Virus record (IMG/VR): IMGVR_UViG_2695420589_000004
Source: a virus
Lineage: Duplodnaviria > Heunggongvirae > Uroviricota > Caudoviricetes
Direction: 5' to 3' (one strand)
DNA length: 4,438 nt
The notes beneath the pieces were generated by a model. That model did not search any database. It saw only the letters and a program-made list of their open reading frames with translations, and was not told the origin of the DNA. A program made the position numbers and the translations under genes. The number at the start of each line of letters is the position of its first letter. Position 1 is the stretch's first letter. Shown piece after piece: positions 1 to 4,427 of this stretch.

Positions 1-1
1 C

Positions 2-103
2 ACCGCTGAACGGGATTATTTCACCCTCAGAGAGCGGCTGATGACGATGCAGATGCAACTGGAAGGGGCACAGGAGTATATCCGCACTCAGTGCATTAAG
101 TAG
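2..103 (+). CDS. 3' end of an upstream ORF that is truncated at the window edge; hypothetical protein, with only the C-terminal 33 aa visible
   Basis: Open frame from position 2 to the TAG at 101-103, translating to TAERDYFTLRERLMTMQMQLEGAQEYIRTQCIK*. It is on the same strand as the downstream phage late genes. No recognisable motif. Its position would fit the end of a lysis-cassette or late-region gene, but that is inference only. Confidence 0.3.
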   Translation, partial: TAERDYFTLRERLMTMQMQLEGAQEYIRTQCIK

Positions 104-145
104 CCTTTTTATCGTGGTAAACATTTCGCAGGGTATGAGGTATTT

Positions 146-496
146 ATGCCATCACTAATCCCACGTGCCTGCCGTAAGCGTGGATGTGCAGGTACAACCA
201 CAGACAGTTCGGGTTACTGCGATAAACATCGCGGTGAAGGCTGGGTGCAGCACCAGCGCGGACTGAGCCGCCACCAGCGTGGCTATGGCTCAAAATGGAC
301 GGTGATTCGTGCCCGTATTCTGAAGCGCGATAAAGGTCTGTGTCAGTTGTGTCTGCGTGTCGGTGTGGTGAGCGAGGCGAAAACCGTCGACCACATCATC
401 CCGAAAGCGCATGGCGGAACAGACGCAGACAGCAACCTGCAGAGTCTGTGCTGGCCCTGCCATAAAGCGAAAACAGCGCGCGAACGAATCCGGTGA
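146..496 (+). CDS. HNH endonuclease, terminase-associated (HK97 gp74-like)
   Basis: 116-aa ORF with ATG at 146 preceded by GAGG at 137-140 (5-nt spacer). The protein has paired Cys motifs (CQLC and CWPCH) flanking a DH catalytic dyad (VDHIIPKAHGG, nt 389-394) and a conserved Asn (SNLQSL), which is the classic HNH/zinc-finger architecture. There is an additional N-terminal Cys/His cluster (CRKRGCAG...YCDKH). It sits immediately upstream of terS, which is the typical location of the packaging HNH in HK97-like phages. Confidence 0.9.
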   Translation: MPSLIPRACRKRGCAGTTTDSSGYCDKHRGEGWVQHQRGLSRHQRGYGSKWTVIRARILKRDKGLCQLCLRVGVVSEAKTVDHIIPKAHGGTDADSNLQSLCWPCHKAKTARERIR

Positions 497-518
497 TAAT
501 TATTCTCACTTGTAGGGA

Positions 519-578
519 GGGGCGGGGCAAATCCCTGTGACCTGACGTCTTCCGGACTGCCCGCCCCATCGTTTTTTT
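519..578 (+). terminator. GC-rich imperfect inverted repeat followed by a T7 run; putative intrinsic terminator after the HNH gene, or alternatively part of the cos region
   Basis: Left arm GGGGCGGGGCA (519-529) pairs with right arm TGCCCGCCCC (558-567): 8 G/C base pairs, a one-base bulge, then 2 more pairs. TTTTTTT follows at 572-578. The loop is about 28 nt, which is long for a canonical terminator, hence the moderate confidence. Confidence 0.4.
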
Positions 579-593
579 ATACCCGCGAAAAAT

Positions 594-639
594 GAAATTT
601 AACCAGGAGTGCCGCATATGGCTGGAACGGCGGGGGGGT
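594..639 (+). repeat. Direct repeat, copy 1 of the terS ribosome-binding site and start region; abuts N-run 640-724
   Basis: The 46 nt gaaatttaaccaggagtgccgcatatggctggaacggcggggggt match 725-770 with one mismatch (637 g versus 768 c). The copy includes AGGAG and an ATG at 618 in the same arrangement as the real terS start. Confidence 0.9.
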
Positions 640-724
640 NNNNNNNNNNNNNNNNNNNNNNNNNNNNNNNNNNNNNNNNNNNNNNNNNNNNNNNNNNNNN
701 NNNNNNNNNNNNNNNNNNNNNNNN
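640..724. other. N-run (85 nt); masked sequence or scaffold gap
   Basis: Contiguous n characters. Confidence 1.
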
Positions 725-770
725 GAAATTTAACCAGGAGTGCCGCATATGGCTGGAACGGCGGGGCGTT
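725..770 (+). repeat. Direct repeat, copy 2; this is the genuine terS ribosome-binding site and start region
   Basis: Near-identical to 594-639 and continues uninterrupted into the terS coding sequence. Confidence 0.9.
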
Positions 771-1243
771 CCGGGCGTCGCCCCAAGCCAACGGCGCGCA
801 AGGCGCTGGCCGGAAACCCCGGCAAGCGAGCCCTGAACAAAGATGAACCTGTTTTTACGCCCATCAAAGGTGTTGAGCCACCAGAGTGGTTCGCTGAAGA
901 AGATCTCCCTCTCGCCACGATCATGTGGCAACTGACAACCAAAGAACTCTGCGGTCAGGGCCTGCTGTGCGTGACTGACCTGGCGGTACTTGAGCGGTGG
1001 TGCGTGGCCTATGAGTTCTGGCGACGTGCCGTGAAAAATATTGCCATACAGGGCAACACCATCACCGGTGCAATGGGCGGCAGGGTCAAAAATCCGGAGC
1101 TGACCGCCAAAAAAGAACAGGAGTCCGAGATGAGCAGCACGGGGGCAATGCTCGGACTCGACCCCAGCAGCCGCCAGCGTCTGATTGGCCTGGCGGGGCA
1201 GAAGAAAGCCACTAACCCGTTTCTGAAAATTATCGAATCATGA
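749..1243 (+). CDS. terS: Phage terminase small subunit, P27 family
   Basis: ATG at 749 with AGGAG at 736-740 (8-nt spacer). The ORF track starts at GTG 740, but ATG 749 has the better RBS spacing. The N-terminus [30 protein letters not shown] matches the characteristic basic 'GRPPKPT...GNPGKR' signature of P27-family small terminases. Length is 164 aa. The TGA stop at 1241-1243 overlaps the terL ATG (ATGA), indicating translational coupling. Confidence 0.9.
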
Positions 1244-2986
1244 GCCGGAAATCTTACCCCAACGTAAATGCTGCAAATCAGTATGCCCGGGATGTCGTGC
1301 GCGGAAAGATTGTTGCCTGCCAGTTTGTGATTCAGGCCTGCCAGCGCCATCTTGATGACCTGATGGCGGAAAAAAGTAAGTCGTTTCGTTACCGCTTCGA
1401 CAAGGACCTGGCTGAACGGGCCGCGAAATTTATTCAGCTGTTGCCGCACACCAAGGGGGAGTGGGCATTCAAACGGATGCCCATCACGCTGGAGCCGTGG
1501 CAGCTATTTGTGATCTGCTGTGCGTTTGGCTGGGTCAATAAAGGCACCCGGTTGCGCCGCTTCCGGGAGGTGTACACCGAAATCCCCCGTAAGAACGGCA
1601 AATCAGCAATCTCTGCCGGTGTTGCCCTGTATTGTTTTGCCTGTGATAACGAGTTTGGCGCGGAAGTGTATTCCGGTGCCACGACAGAGAAACAGGCGTG
1701 GGAAGTCTTTCGCCCGGCGCGACTGATGTGTAAACGCACACCCATGCTGACGGAAGCGTTCGGGATTGAGGTTAACGCCTCAAACATGAACCGTCCGGAG
1801 GATGGCGCGCGGTTTGAACCGCTGATCGGCAACCCAGGTGATGGTTCATCACCCCACTGTGCCGTGGTTGATGAATATCACGAGCATGCCACCGATGCGC
1901 TTTATACCACAATGCTTACCGGGATGGGGGCGCGACNNNNNNNNNNNNNNNCAGCCACTGATGTGGGCCATCACCACCGCCGGGTACAACATTGAGGGGC
2001 CGTGCTACGACAAGCGGCGGGAAGTCATCGAGATGCTCAACGGCTCGGTGCCTAACGATGAACTGTTCGGGATCATCTATACCGTTGATGAAGGTGACGA
2101 CTGGACCGGCCCGCAGGTGCTGGAAAAAGCCAATCCAAATATTGGCGTGTCGGTTTATCGCGAATTTTTGTTAAGTCAGCAGCAGCGTGCGAAAAATAAC
2201 GCCCGTCTGGCAAACGTCTTTAAAACAAAACACCTCAATATCTGGGTGTCGGCGCGTTCGGCGTATTTCAACTTGGTGAGCTGGCAGAGCTGCGAGGATA
2301 AATCACTGACCCTTGAGCAGTTCGAGGGGCAGCCGTGCATTCTGGCCTTTGACCTGGCGCGTAAGCTGGATATGAACAGCATGGCGCGACTTTATACCCG
2401 CGAGATTGACGGTAAAACGCATTACTACAGTGTGGCCCCGCGTTTCTGGGTACCGTATGACACGGTGTACAGCGTCGAGAAAAATGAAGATCGACGGACA
2501 GCCGAACGCTTTCAGAAATGGGTGGAAATGGGCGTTCTGACCGTTACCGATGGTGCGGAGGTGGATTATCGCTACATCCTCGAGGAGGCCAAAGCGGCGA
2601 ACAAAATCAGCCCGGTCAGTGAGTCACCCATCGACCCCTTCGGGGCGACCGGGTTGTCACATGACCTTGCTGATGAAGACCTGAATCCCGTCACTATCGT
2701 CCAGAACTTCACCAATATGTCCGATCCGATGAAAGAGCTGGAAGCAGCGATTGAATCGGGACGTTTTCATCATGACGGCAATCCCATCATGACCTGGTGT
2801 ATCGGCAACGTGGTCGGCAAAAACATGCCGGGTAACGATGATGTGGTGAAACCCGTCAAAGAGCAGGCGGAAAACAAAATCGATGGTGCAGTTGCGCTGA
2901 TTATGGCGGTTGGCAGAGCCATGCTGTACGAGAAAGAAGACACGCTGTCTGACCACATTGAGTCCTACGGGATCCGCTCGCTTTAA
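1240..2986 (+). CDS. terL: Phage terminase large subunit (ATPase plus nuclease), interrupted by N-run 1937-1951
   Basis: ATG at 1240 overlaps the terS stop. The long ORF ends at TAA 2984-2986. Before the N-run the sequence reads ...[25 protein letters not shown], and after it ...[24 protein letters not shown]... Both parts look like one terminase large subunit of about 580 aa, with the N-terminal ATPase region and the C-terminal nuclease region. The reading frame changes by +1 across the 15-nt N-run, so the N-run length is probably not the true length. Confidence 0.88.
1937..1951. other. N-run (15 nt) inside terL
   Basis: Contiguous n characters. terL is in frame 1 before the run and frame 2 after it. 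Confidence 1.
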
Positions 2987-2997
2987 CTGAGGTAATT

Positions 2998-3198
2998 ATG
3001 ATCATGCTGATTCTCGCGCCTCTGGTGGGCGTGCTGGGTGCGCTTTTGCTGGCGTATGGTGCCTGGCTGATTTATNNNNNNNNNNNNNNNNNNNNNNNNN
3101 NNNNNNNNNNNNNNNNNNNNNNNNNNNNNNNNNNNNNNNNNNNNNNNNNNNNNNNNNNNNNNNNNNNNNNNNNNNNNNNAGTCTGTCGGCGGAGGTAA
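2998..3198 (+). CDS. Small hypothetical membrane protein (single predicted TM helix), partly masked
   Basis: ATG at 2998 with GAGGT at 2989-2993. The visible N-terminus [26 protein letters not shown] is a hydrophobic, helix-like segment. After the N-run the same frame reads ...VCRRR and stops at TAA 3196-3198, if the N-run preserves length. It lies 11 nt after the terL stop and ends inside the portal RBS. The 3' boundary is uncertain because of N-run 3076-3179. Confidence 0.4.
3076..3179. other. N-run (104 nt)
   Basis: Contiguous n characters. Confidence 1.
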
Positions 3199-3201
3199 AT
3201 A

Positions 3202-4427
3202 GTGTTCTTTTCGGGATTATTTCAACGAAAAAGCGATGTGCCGGTGACCACGCCAGCAGAACNNNNNNNNNNNNNNNNNNNNNNNNNNNNNNNNNNNNNN
3301 NNNNNNNNNNNNNNNNNNNNNNNNNNNNNNNNNNNNNNNNNNNNNNNNNNNNNNNNNNNNNNNNNNNNNNNNNNNNNNNNNNNNNNNNNNNNNNNNNNNN
3401 NNNNNNNNNNNNNNNNNNNNNNNNNNNNNNNNNNNNNNNNNNNNNNNNNNNNNNNNNNNNNNNNNNNNNNNNNNNNNNNNNNNNNNNNNNNNNNNNNNNN
3501 NNNNNNNNNNNNNNNNNNNNNNNNNNNNNNNNNNNNNNNNNNNNNNNNNNNNNNNNNNNNNNNNNNNNNNNNNNNNNNNNNNNNNNNNNNNNNNNNNNNN
3601 NNNNNNNNNNNNNNNNNNNNNNNNNNNNNNNNNNNNNNNNNNNNNNNNNNNNNNNNNNNNNNNNNNNNNNNNNNNNNNNNNNNNNNNNNNNNNNNNNNNN
3701 NNNNNNNNNTCAGGTGACGTTTCCGGATGGTTCCGTGGATGTGTTGACCCAGAATGAAATCTGGCATGTGCGCACCCTGACGCTGGATGGACTTGTCGGG
3801 CTGAATCCCATTGCGTATGCGCGTGAGGCCATTTCACTGGCAGCGGCAACCGAGGAGCACGGTGCCAGGTTGTTTAGTAATGGTGCGGTGACATCCGGTG
3901 TGTTGCGTACGGAACAAAAGCTCACGCCGGATGCTTACGAGCGTCTGAAGAAAGATTTTGAGGAGTGTCACACGGGGCTTGGCAATGCTCACCGCCCGAT
4001 GATTCTGGAAATGGGGCTGGACTGGAAGTCGATGGCGCTGAACGCCGAGGACAGTCAGTTCCTGGAAACCCGCAAGTTTCAGCTGGAAGAAATCTGTCGT
4101 CTGTTCCGGGTGCCGTTGCACATGGTGCAGAACACCGATCGCGCCACCTTCAACAATATCGAAGAGCTGGGGCTGGGATTTATCAACTATTCACTGGTGC
4201 CGTATCTGACCCGCATCGAACAGCGGATCAACACCGGACTGGTACGAAAAAGTAAGCAGGGCGTTTATTACGCCAAATTTAACGCCGGGGCGTTACTGCG
4301 CGGGGATATGAAGTCCCGTTTTGAAGCCTACGCCACCGGGATCAACTGGGGAATTTACTCTTCCAATGACTGCCGCGACCTGGAAGATATGAATCCGCGT
4401 CCCGGTGGTGTAATGCCGATCAGTTAA
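3202..4427 (+). CDS. Phage portal protein, HK97 family, with a 447-nt N-run inside (3263-3709)
   Basis: GTG at 3202 with a strong GGAGGT at 3191-3196 (5-nt spacer) and an in-frame TAA immediately upstream at 3196-3198. The visible N-terminus is MFFSGLFQRKSDVPVTTPAE. The unmasked C-terminal part (3710-4427) reads ...NPIAYAREAISLAAATEEHGARLFSNG...EDSQFLETRKFQLEEICRLFRVPLHMVQN...YLTRIEQRIN..., which is typical of HK97-family portals. The total span of about 408 codons is the expected portal size. The N-terminal and C-terminal parts are in different frames across the N-run, so the join is inferred. AAGGA at 4426-4430 suggests the next gene, expected to be the head protease, starts just past the window. 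Confidence 0.78.
3263..3709. other. N-run (447 nt) inside the portal gene
   Basis: Contiguous n characters. Confidence 1.

Follow-up and report, generated by a model that had tools for sequence, protein, structure and literature searches.

A probable cos site of the SfV/SfI/phiP27 type between the HNH and terS genes of a lambdoid prophage, and the inverted repeat within it

Described HNH-associated cos sites and the gene order of the window

The cos site of phages SfV, SfI, SfII, SfIV and phiP27 is already known, and its cohesive end has been determined experimentally. Direct sequencing of the virion DNA termini of SfI, compared with the prophage, revealed a gap of 10 nt, 5'-TGCCCGCCCC-3' (PMC3636060), and the GenBank record of phiP27 carries a 10-nt misc_feature named "cos-site", CGCCCGCCCC. 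Throughout this group the genes follow the order Rz, HNH, cos, P27-family terS, terL and portal. In HK97, cos also lies between an HNH gene and terS; its overhang is described as a 10-nt 3' extension in PMC11331095, in conflict with the 12 nt given in PMC9410871. The binding site of the HK97 small terminase subunit (TerS) is found just downstream of the cut, at +15 to +29, and consists of a C/G step followed by an A/T tract that must be deformable (PMC11331095). A model in which the HNH protein cuts one strand and the large terminase subunit (TerL) the other has already been published (PMC11331095; PMC12967558, citing Kala 2014 and Quiles-Puchalt 2014). For the HNH protein of Bacillus phage Gamma, N.phiGamma, strand-specific nicking has been shown at CG^GT (AC^CG; the caret marks a cut or junction here and below), with star sites AC^TG and AC^CC and with relatives that have similar sites (PMC3592412, Xu & Gupta), whereas several further packaging HNH proteins, among them HK97 gp74, lack specificity when tested alone (PMC3592412; PMC12967558). 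The cos site of lambda (cosQ-cosN-cosB) shares with the locus described here a tripartite layout, made up of an accessory element upstream, the nick site and a TerS-binding region downstream, and a cohesive end whose left part is conserved and whose right part is variable (PMC4669245). This likeness is one of analogy only, as lambda has 12-nt 5' overhangs, no HNH protein, a Nu1-type TerS and an IHF-dependent cosB with R sites, and the 10-nt end and P27-family TerS of our locus argue against membership of the lambda type.

The DNA analysed here is a stretch of 4,438 nt from IMG/VR record IMGVR_UViG_2695420589_000004, hereafter the window. It contains the C-terminal end of an Rz lysis gene (2-103), an HNH endonuclease gene for a terminase-associated nickase (146-496, plus strand; PF01844, E = 1.6e-16), a P27-family terS (749-1243 as assembled, with its true start at 618, plus strand; PF05119 and TIGR01558), a terL with ATPase and nuclease domains (1240-2986, plus strand; PF03354 and PF20441), a small membrane ORF from 2998 and an HK97-type portal gene that extends to 4427 (PF04860). 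The TerS protein exceeds the curated cut-offs of the P27-family models, scoring 72.2 bits against TIGR01558 (cut-off 45.6) and 72.6 bits against PF05119 (cut-off 24.7; E = 3.7e-20). The HNH protein begins with a zinc ribbon (CxxxxC...CxxH) that is followed by the HNH domain; Gamma has the same layout and likewise a P27-family TerS, unlike HK97, whose gp74 is without the N-terminal ribbon (PMC3592412). Homology to characterised cos phages extends to both nucleases: the HNH protein is 38% identical to N.phiGamma over its full length (E = 1e-16) and 34% identical to gp74 (E = 2e-10), and TerL is 28% identical to the N-terminal part of HK97 gp2 (E = 2e-8). With HNH on one side, terS on the other and terL and portal farther downstream, the interval occupies the position of an HNH-dependent cos of the HK97/P27 type, and the annotations of E. 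coli UTAK-3 and phiP27 show an identical gene order.

The original prediction had placed the HNH-terS interval at 497-748. Its choice of flanking genes agrees with the domain matches above, whereas the extent it assigned does not hold. Positions 640-724 are a run of 85 N, a scaffold gap from which zero real sequence is missing, and this run is flanked by a 42-nt exact duplication (594-635 = 725-766). The upstream contig end (594-639) duplicates 725-766, and its last bases (636-639) deviate from the true sequence. In an otherwise identical IMG/VR contig that is continuous here (L059), window 1-635 is found at 584-1218 with 100% identity and window 725-2453 at 1177-2892, so that both pieces overlap by 42 nt. 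Because that contig is continuous and the pieces overlap, terS starts with the ATG at 618 (equivalent to 749), behind its true ribosome-binding site at 605-609, and the real non-coding stretch is 497-617, or 121 bp. The window comes from a scaffolded draft, and the 252 bp first given for the intergenic region are an artefact of its assembly. Another scaffold gap, of 14 N at 1938-1951, apparently interrupts the terL frame, which is continuous in L059 and in a further relative (L004). The prophage from which the window derives may be defective.

The cohesive end and the conserved elements around it

Window positions 558-567 on the plus strand are letter for letter the SfI cohesive end, and the end of the SfI record (...TCCGGACTGCCCGCCCC) corresponds to position 567. 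The annotated cos-site of phiP27 aligns to the same ten positions, within a stretch (146-590) where phiP27 is 93.7% identical to the window (megablast, phage records), and bases 1-85 of SfV are 100% identical to window 551-635. When the right end of HK97 is joined to its left end, the product aligns with the window without gaps and reads G-tract, ATCAAATC, 21 nt, GAC, CGCCGCCAAA^GTTT; because of this gapless alignment, the cuts of HK97 and of the window coincide. The matches to SfI, phiP27 and SfV make the right arm of the predicted inverted repeat the cohesive end itself (cosN), the identity and position of which are established by homology. The original prediction had expected a cos site of an HK97-like module in this interval and had suggested an alignment with experimentally defined sites, which bears out that expectation; it had also held that the cut site could not be identified from the sequence, and in this it was too cautious, as the cut can be named by homology to SfI, phiP27 and HK97, with predicted nicks at 557/558 and 567/568.

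We therefore regard it as very probable that 497-617 is the cos site of a lambdoid prophage of the SfV/SfI/phiP27 type, with a packaging module composed of an HNH nuclease, a P27-family TerS and an HK97-type TerL, and that the two arms of the repeat are two separate signals in double-stranded DNA. From the SfI/SfV/phiP27 group the window shows no substantive difference; phiP27 has a different terS allele, 48% identical to that of the window. HK97 differs in the sequence of its end (CGCCGCCAAA), in a gp1 that does not belong to the P27 family and in the sequence of its downstream block.

A broader comparison was based on relatives retrieved with the TerS protein as query, which gave 43 loci in a genome collection and 80 in IMG/VR. 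Together with loci found earlier, they yielded 122 cos regions, 65 of them unique, from which 32 representatives with less than 92% identity were retained (33 with the window). The hosts include Escherichia/Shigella, Edwardsiella, Citrobacter, Serratia, Xenorhabdus, Photorhabdus, Morganella, Gilliamella and Cupriavidus, and a sequence match was present in 1294 of 5426 complete E. coli genomes. The cos regions of the 65 unique relatives align essentially without gaps, a single 1-nt indel being introduced by MAFFT in one of them (L043). Against this fixed spacing, conservation is confined to distinct elements: a block upstream of the nick, the nick motif itself and a block downstream of the cohesive end.

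The nick motif, GAC^TGC at 555-560, marks the left edge of the cohesive end. Across the 33 relatives A556, C557, G559 and C560 are invariant, and position 558 is a pyrimidine in 31 of 33, with G in the other two (L048 and L049). Because this invariant AC^YGC fits the mapped specificity of N.phiGamma, we propose that 556-560 is best read as the site at which the HNH protein would nick the bottom strand, between 557 and 558 (5'-GCA^GTC-3' on the minus strand). Since the gp74-type HNH proteins are non-specific alone, assigning an AC^YG nick to the HNH protein is an extrapolation from the Gamma-type nickases. In the mechanism that we favour, the bottom strand would be nicked at 557/558, most likely by the HNH nickase, and the top strand at 567/568, 10 nt downstream, most likely by TerL, which would leave 3' overhangs. 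The region around the top-strand cut (565-571) is variable among the 33 relatives, and TerL may cut at a fixed distance of 10 nt from the nick, where the sequence would be free to vary. As for polarity, 3' overhangs would explain why the 10 nt are absent from the run-off reads of both SfI ends, since 5' overhangs would have given overlapping reads. We infer both the polarity and the assignment of each strand to a nuclease in this phage; the 3' polarity is taken from HK97 and from our own reading of the SfI gap, and is not a statement of the SfI authors.

The upstream block (515-537) consists of a box, GGGAGGGGCGGGG (515-527), followed by CAAATCCCTG, and it includes the left arm of the inverted repeat. 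Its consensus among the 33 relatives is GGGAGGGGCGGG-YCAAATCYCTG, with high conservation of its columns and with G521, G522, A530, A531, T532, C535 and T536 invariant. In the window the box contains GGGGCA, a variant found in six loci, and GGGTCA is the commoner form. The spacer between the upstream block and the nick site (538-554) is variable in sequence (low information content) and fixed in length, and the box is separated by 28 bp from the invariant AC^YGC. A box at matching spacing is also present in HK97 and in Gamma, and it recurs as a C-tract in Bacillus phi105, Paenibacillus Diva and Staphylococcus aureus phi2, phages with an HNH gene at the end of their record. The right end of Gamma reads GGGGCGGG-(28-29 nt)-AC^CGCCGCCCC, and the distance from the start of the box to the AC of GTAC^CGCCGCCCC is 39 nt, as in the window. 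Both ends of the Gamma record carry CGCCGCCCC, and AC^CG fits the left edge of this end; Gamma differs from the window in its 9-nt terminal repeat (10 nt in the window), the lack of a T-run after cos and the phylum of its host. In phi105 the junction is CCCCCCACCC-N28-AC^CGCGCTCC, of which the last 7 nt (GCGCTCC) are annotated as cos, where an AC^CG nick would predict one base more. The corresponding junctions are CCCCCCCACCC-N28-AC^CGACTGCCC in Diva, at the record end, and CCCCCTGCCC-N28-AC^ in phi2, at the record break. In Gamma, phi105 (off by one), Diva, phi2 and HK97 alike, AC directly precedes the point at which the terminal repeat, the overhang or the record break begins. In Streptococcus P7602, Burkholderia vB_E253 and Serratia Carrot, a clear box-N28-AC pattern was absent or the record was not cut at cos.

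Because the boxes of phi105, Diva and phi2 are C-rich on the top strand, they could not pair with a C-rich cos, and what is conserved is a spaced G·C tract and not a hairpin. By analogy of position with lambda cosQ, the box probably has an accessory part in packaging or termination, as a signal read in double-stranded DNA. An element upstream of the nick is the first that a translocating terminase meets. Neither PMC9410871 nor PMC11331095 contains a statement about a G-tract box upstream of the HK97 cos. Somewhat more speculatively, the HNH-dependent cos sites of phages of Proteobacteria and Firmicutes might share one architecture, exemplified by the SfV/phiP27 family, HK97, Gamma, phi105, Diva and phi2. 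In such an architecture, a G·C homopolymer-like box of about 10 bp, on either strand, would be followed after about 28 bp by AC^YG; the HNH protein would nick the bottom strand there and TerL would cut the top strand 7-10 nt downstream, with the box acting like cosQ or as a docking site for the HNH-terminase complex. We offer this reading tentatively, at somewhat less than even confidence.

Downstream of the cohesive end, a near-invariant block, TTTTTATACCCGCGAAAAATGAAATTTAA, occupies 574-602, that is +7 to +35 from the top-strand cut. The T7 run of the original prediction (572-578, plus strand) overlaps its 5' edge, so that five of the seven Ts (T574-T578) lie inside the block; T572 and T573 vary. 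The core of the block, from the T-run up to and including ACCCGCGAAA, hardly varies among the relatives from Enterobacterales and Gilliamella, and it is also kept in phiP27, in a Citrobacter locus (L048) and in a Cupriavidus locus (L049), where the changes fall downstream of it and where ACCCGCGAAA is retained although terS is only about 50% identical. We consider the block a reasonably likely binding site of the small terminase, equivalent to cosB. Because the window TerS and HK97 gp1 are not detectably similar, the comparison with the HK97 TerS site is a positional analogy only; gp1 also falls outside PF05119 and TIGR01558. A transfer of the HK97 TerS-DNA contacts (Arg128/G21 and the A-tract) to the window was dropped for the same reason. 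The pairwise BLASTP comparison of the TerS proteins of Gamma and the window was not significant, and both match the P27 family models.

The inverted repeat and its alternative readings

The imperfect inverted repeat at 519-567, with the T7 run behind it, was located exactly as predicted. Its left arm, GGGGCGGGGCA (519-529), is complementary to the right arm (558-567) save for one bulged G (527), and T7 begins 4 nt past the right arm. As an RNA structure, it was found to be ordinary and not the strong structure that it had been taken for. The minimum free energy of 505-585 is -27 kcal/mol, compared with -23.65 +/- 3.08 kcal/mol for dinucleotide shuffles (z = -1.09; 31 of 200 shuffles reached this stability), and 14.6% of the 81-nt windows on either strand of the stretch fold at least equally well, so that the stability to be expected of a terminator does not stand out here. 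A consensus terminator scan of 1-1300 returned 0 sites, an Rfam scan of the same positions by E-value found no match, and a repeat search of the window did not report the arm pair, though its shared exact run is long enough to seed one.

The comparison of relatives points in the same direction. RNAalifold applied to the 33 relatives gave no such consensus, merely a 4-pair helix of -1.73 kcal/mol. When the predicted helix and its inner pairs were imposed on the alignment, 64.8% of cells were paired; shuffles that preserve the columns gave 65.7%, and 431 of the 500 equalled or exceeded the observed value. The covariation score of the helix was 0.145 against 0.158 in shuffles, so the two arms do not covary. 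The pairing of the arms is an effect of composition, with G-rich columns standing opposite a C-rich block. Natural mosaics illustrate this, since in two relatives (L065 and L113) a left arm GGGGGAGG is joined to a right arm CCCGCCCC. In most relatives a G-rich arm can still pair with a C-rich one if the register is shifted, with minimum free energies of -18 to -41 kcal/mol, and the missing covariation may be compatible with a structure whose arms are each constrained in sequence. An alternative local hairpin with the cohesive end in its loop (columns 38-45 with 54-61), as seen in Xenorhabdus, was rejected as a feature of the family: 37.5% of cells are paired, 16 of 500 shuffles equal this value, slid controls do so as well, and the window does not form it.

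With its GC-rich arms and, on the coding strand, a T-run behind them, the inverted repeat resembles a Rho-independent terminator, and the original prediction had allowed for a terminator, a terminase recognition element or both. A terminator, alone or alongside cos, might end the transcript of the lysis and HNH genes or, in the lysogen, keep the structural genes insulated, and either version seems unlikely to us. A hairpin of -27 kcal/mol is possible, weak A-U and G-U closing pairs would carry it to T7, the arms can be paired in most relatives and T574-578 are conserved; in four Xenorhabdus relatives (L032-L035), moreover, a stem of 7-10 bp with a loop of 6-8 nt stands at the same place, 0-2 nt before a run of T6-T7. 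Yet this canonical form, a hairpin next to the T-run, occurs in just 7 of the 33 relatives, most strongly in those four from Xenorhabdus, in which the cohesive end lies in the loop. In the window, the arms enclose 28 nt, so the compact stem with a 3-8 nt loop and U-tract that is typical of intrinsic terminators is not found; T7 lies 4 nt after the strong stem, the energy is no better than that of the shuffles or of 14.6% of windows, and the 33 relatives have no consensus fold and no compensatory change in the stem. The T-run is broken in two relatives (L017 and L049) and is contiguous with a longer invariant block of DNA. In other phages, the elements come apart: Gamma and HK97 have the box and cos with no T-run right after cos, and the C-rich boxes of phi105, Diva and phi2 are unable to pair with cos. 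In the late operons of lambdoid phages, a Q-modified polymerase reads through terminators. With late transcription antiterminated by Q, a terminator here would count only in the lysogen. Of the functions first offered for the repeat, we accordingly retain the packaging signals, which we propose for each arm separately, while the terminator finds no backing in the scan, the covariation analysis or the fold statistics.

Two further readings concern the repeat as DNA, and both are less probable than a terminator. If the repeat were extruded as a cruciform or hairpin, or bound symmetrically by a dimer, terminase or the HNH protein could read its structure. The conservation of both arms at a fixed spacing would suit such a reading, as would the 39 nt from box start to AC that the window family shares with Gamma and the resemblance between the bottom strand of the common box, GACCCGCCCC, and the top strand of cosN, GACYGCCCGCCCC. 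We nevertheless judge it improbable, given that the cuts are confined to the right arm and asymmetric about the centre of the repeat, that the arms show no compensatory changes, with 35% of cells unpaired, and that they are mismatched in the mosaic relatives. The box of phi105, Diva and phi2 has the opposite strand composition, and the G9 box of HK97 fits CCGCCGCC only imperfectly. Conversely, the left arm could be a chance G-rich stretch without function, with the right arm (cosN) alone of importance, as fold statistics at chance level would allow. This is very improbable, because few columns of the 33 relatives are as conserved as those of the box and the AAATC next to it, and because HK97, Gamma, phi105, Diva and phi2 all have the box, again at the 28-bp spacing. 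Reading the arms as two separate double-stranded packaging signals, the cohesive end on the right and an upstream box on the left, remains our preferred interpretation.

Significance for HNH-dependent packaging

For annotation, the gain is that the cos cut site is fixed for a very common prophage type of E. coli and Shigella. What is mildly new is comparative only, namely the box-N28-AC^YG pattern in common with HNH-cos phages of Gram-positive hosts, together with its match to the specificity of a characterised nickase. If the shared architecture is true, the inverted repeat would be the local form of a box-plus-nick module. The comparison also supplies testable detail on how HNH and TerL cooperate in cos cleavage, with the left nick at an AC^YGC that is invariant, the right nick in variable sequence and a box that recurs at fixed spacing across phyla.

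Layout of the cos site across HNH phages

The arrangement seen in the window, where a G·C-tract box (515-537) precedes the cohesive end (cosN, 558-567), is found again in HNH-cos phages of both Firmicutes and Proteobacteria as a G·C-tract box, 28 nt and then AC immediately before the overhang. The loci that show it are those of phages Gamma (L130/L131), phi105 (L132/L140), Diva (L133/L139), S. aureus phi2 (L137/L138) and HK97 (L006/L005). The top-strand composition of the box varies by phage, being either G-rich or C-rich. The AC/CG edge agrees with the nicking specificity reported for N.phiGamma, the HNH nickase of Bacillus phage Gamma, and its relatives. The 3' overhang of HK97 has been given as 10 nt (PMC11331095) and as 12 nt (PMC9410871), in papers whose authors overlap; 10 nt is the value that agrees both with the GenBank record and with how HK97 aligns to SfI and phiP27, phages with determined or annotated cos ends.

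The Xenorhabdus loci (L032-L035) carry a canonical terminator-like hairpin at the homologous cos position, approximately 60-100 nt upstream of terS, for example GACCCAAGG-GACCGCCA-CCTTGGGTC followed by T7, with the predicted cohesive-end sequence in its loop. Its pairing is not the same as that of the inverted repeat in the window (519-529 with 558-567).

Scaffold gaps and apparent reading frames

An exact 42-nt direct repeat (594-635 and 725-766) lies on both sides of an 85-N run, and the first copy ends in GGGT at 636-639, whereas the true sequence has CGTT. The repeat and N run (594-766) are a contig overlap left unmerged in the scaffold, owing to which both the ribosome-binding site and the start codon of terS are present twice and spurious ORFs run across the gap. 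Three further N runs occur in the window (1938-1951, 3076-3179 and 3263-3709). The 14-N run in terL (1938-1951) stands for approximately one real base, as indicated by a BLAST alignment of 1729 window bases with 1716 in L059, an otherwise identical, continuous IMG/VR contig; the single terL gene is consequently split into two apparent ORFs, 1240-1995 and 1838-2986, that lie in different frames. Because of the other two gaps, a small ymfR-like ORF is largely missing and the portal gene lacks its N-terminal half.

Related prophages and recombination at cos

L010 (JAEWTL010000102.1) is a contig of 5.6 kb from a MAG that carries the label Bacillota bacterium, and is probably an enterobacterial prophage contig that was mis-binned. 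Its terS is 98% identical to that of the window, and its cos region differs at only two positions inside the 515-602 core, with more differences in the stretch that leads from the HNH stop to the box. In a related prophage of E. coli UTAK-3 (L004, NZ_CP157160.1), a subtilase-family AB5 toxin binding-subunit gene lies directly upstream of the holin/lysis cassette; the annotation of that genome marks terS as frameshifted.

Comparison of window positions 515-600 with three other loci shows the cos region to be a recombination junction. L065 and L113 each combine a Scandinavium/Citrobacter-type left half with an E. coli-type right half. The likeness of phiP27 (L001) to the window stops near 590, between cosN and a differing terS allele that is 48% identical to the window's.
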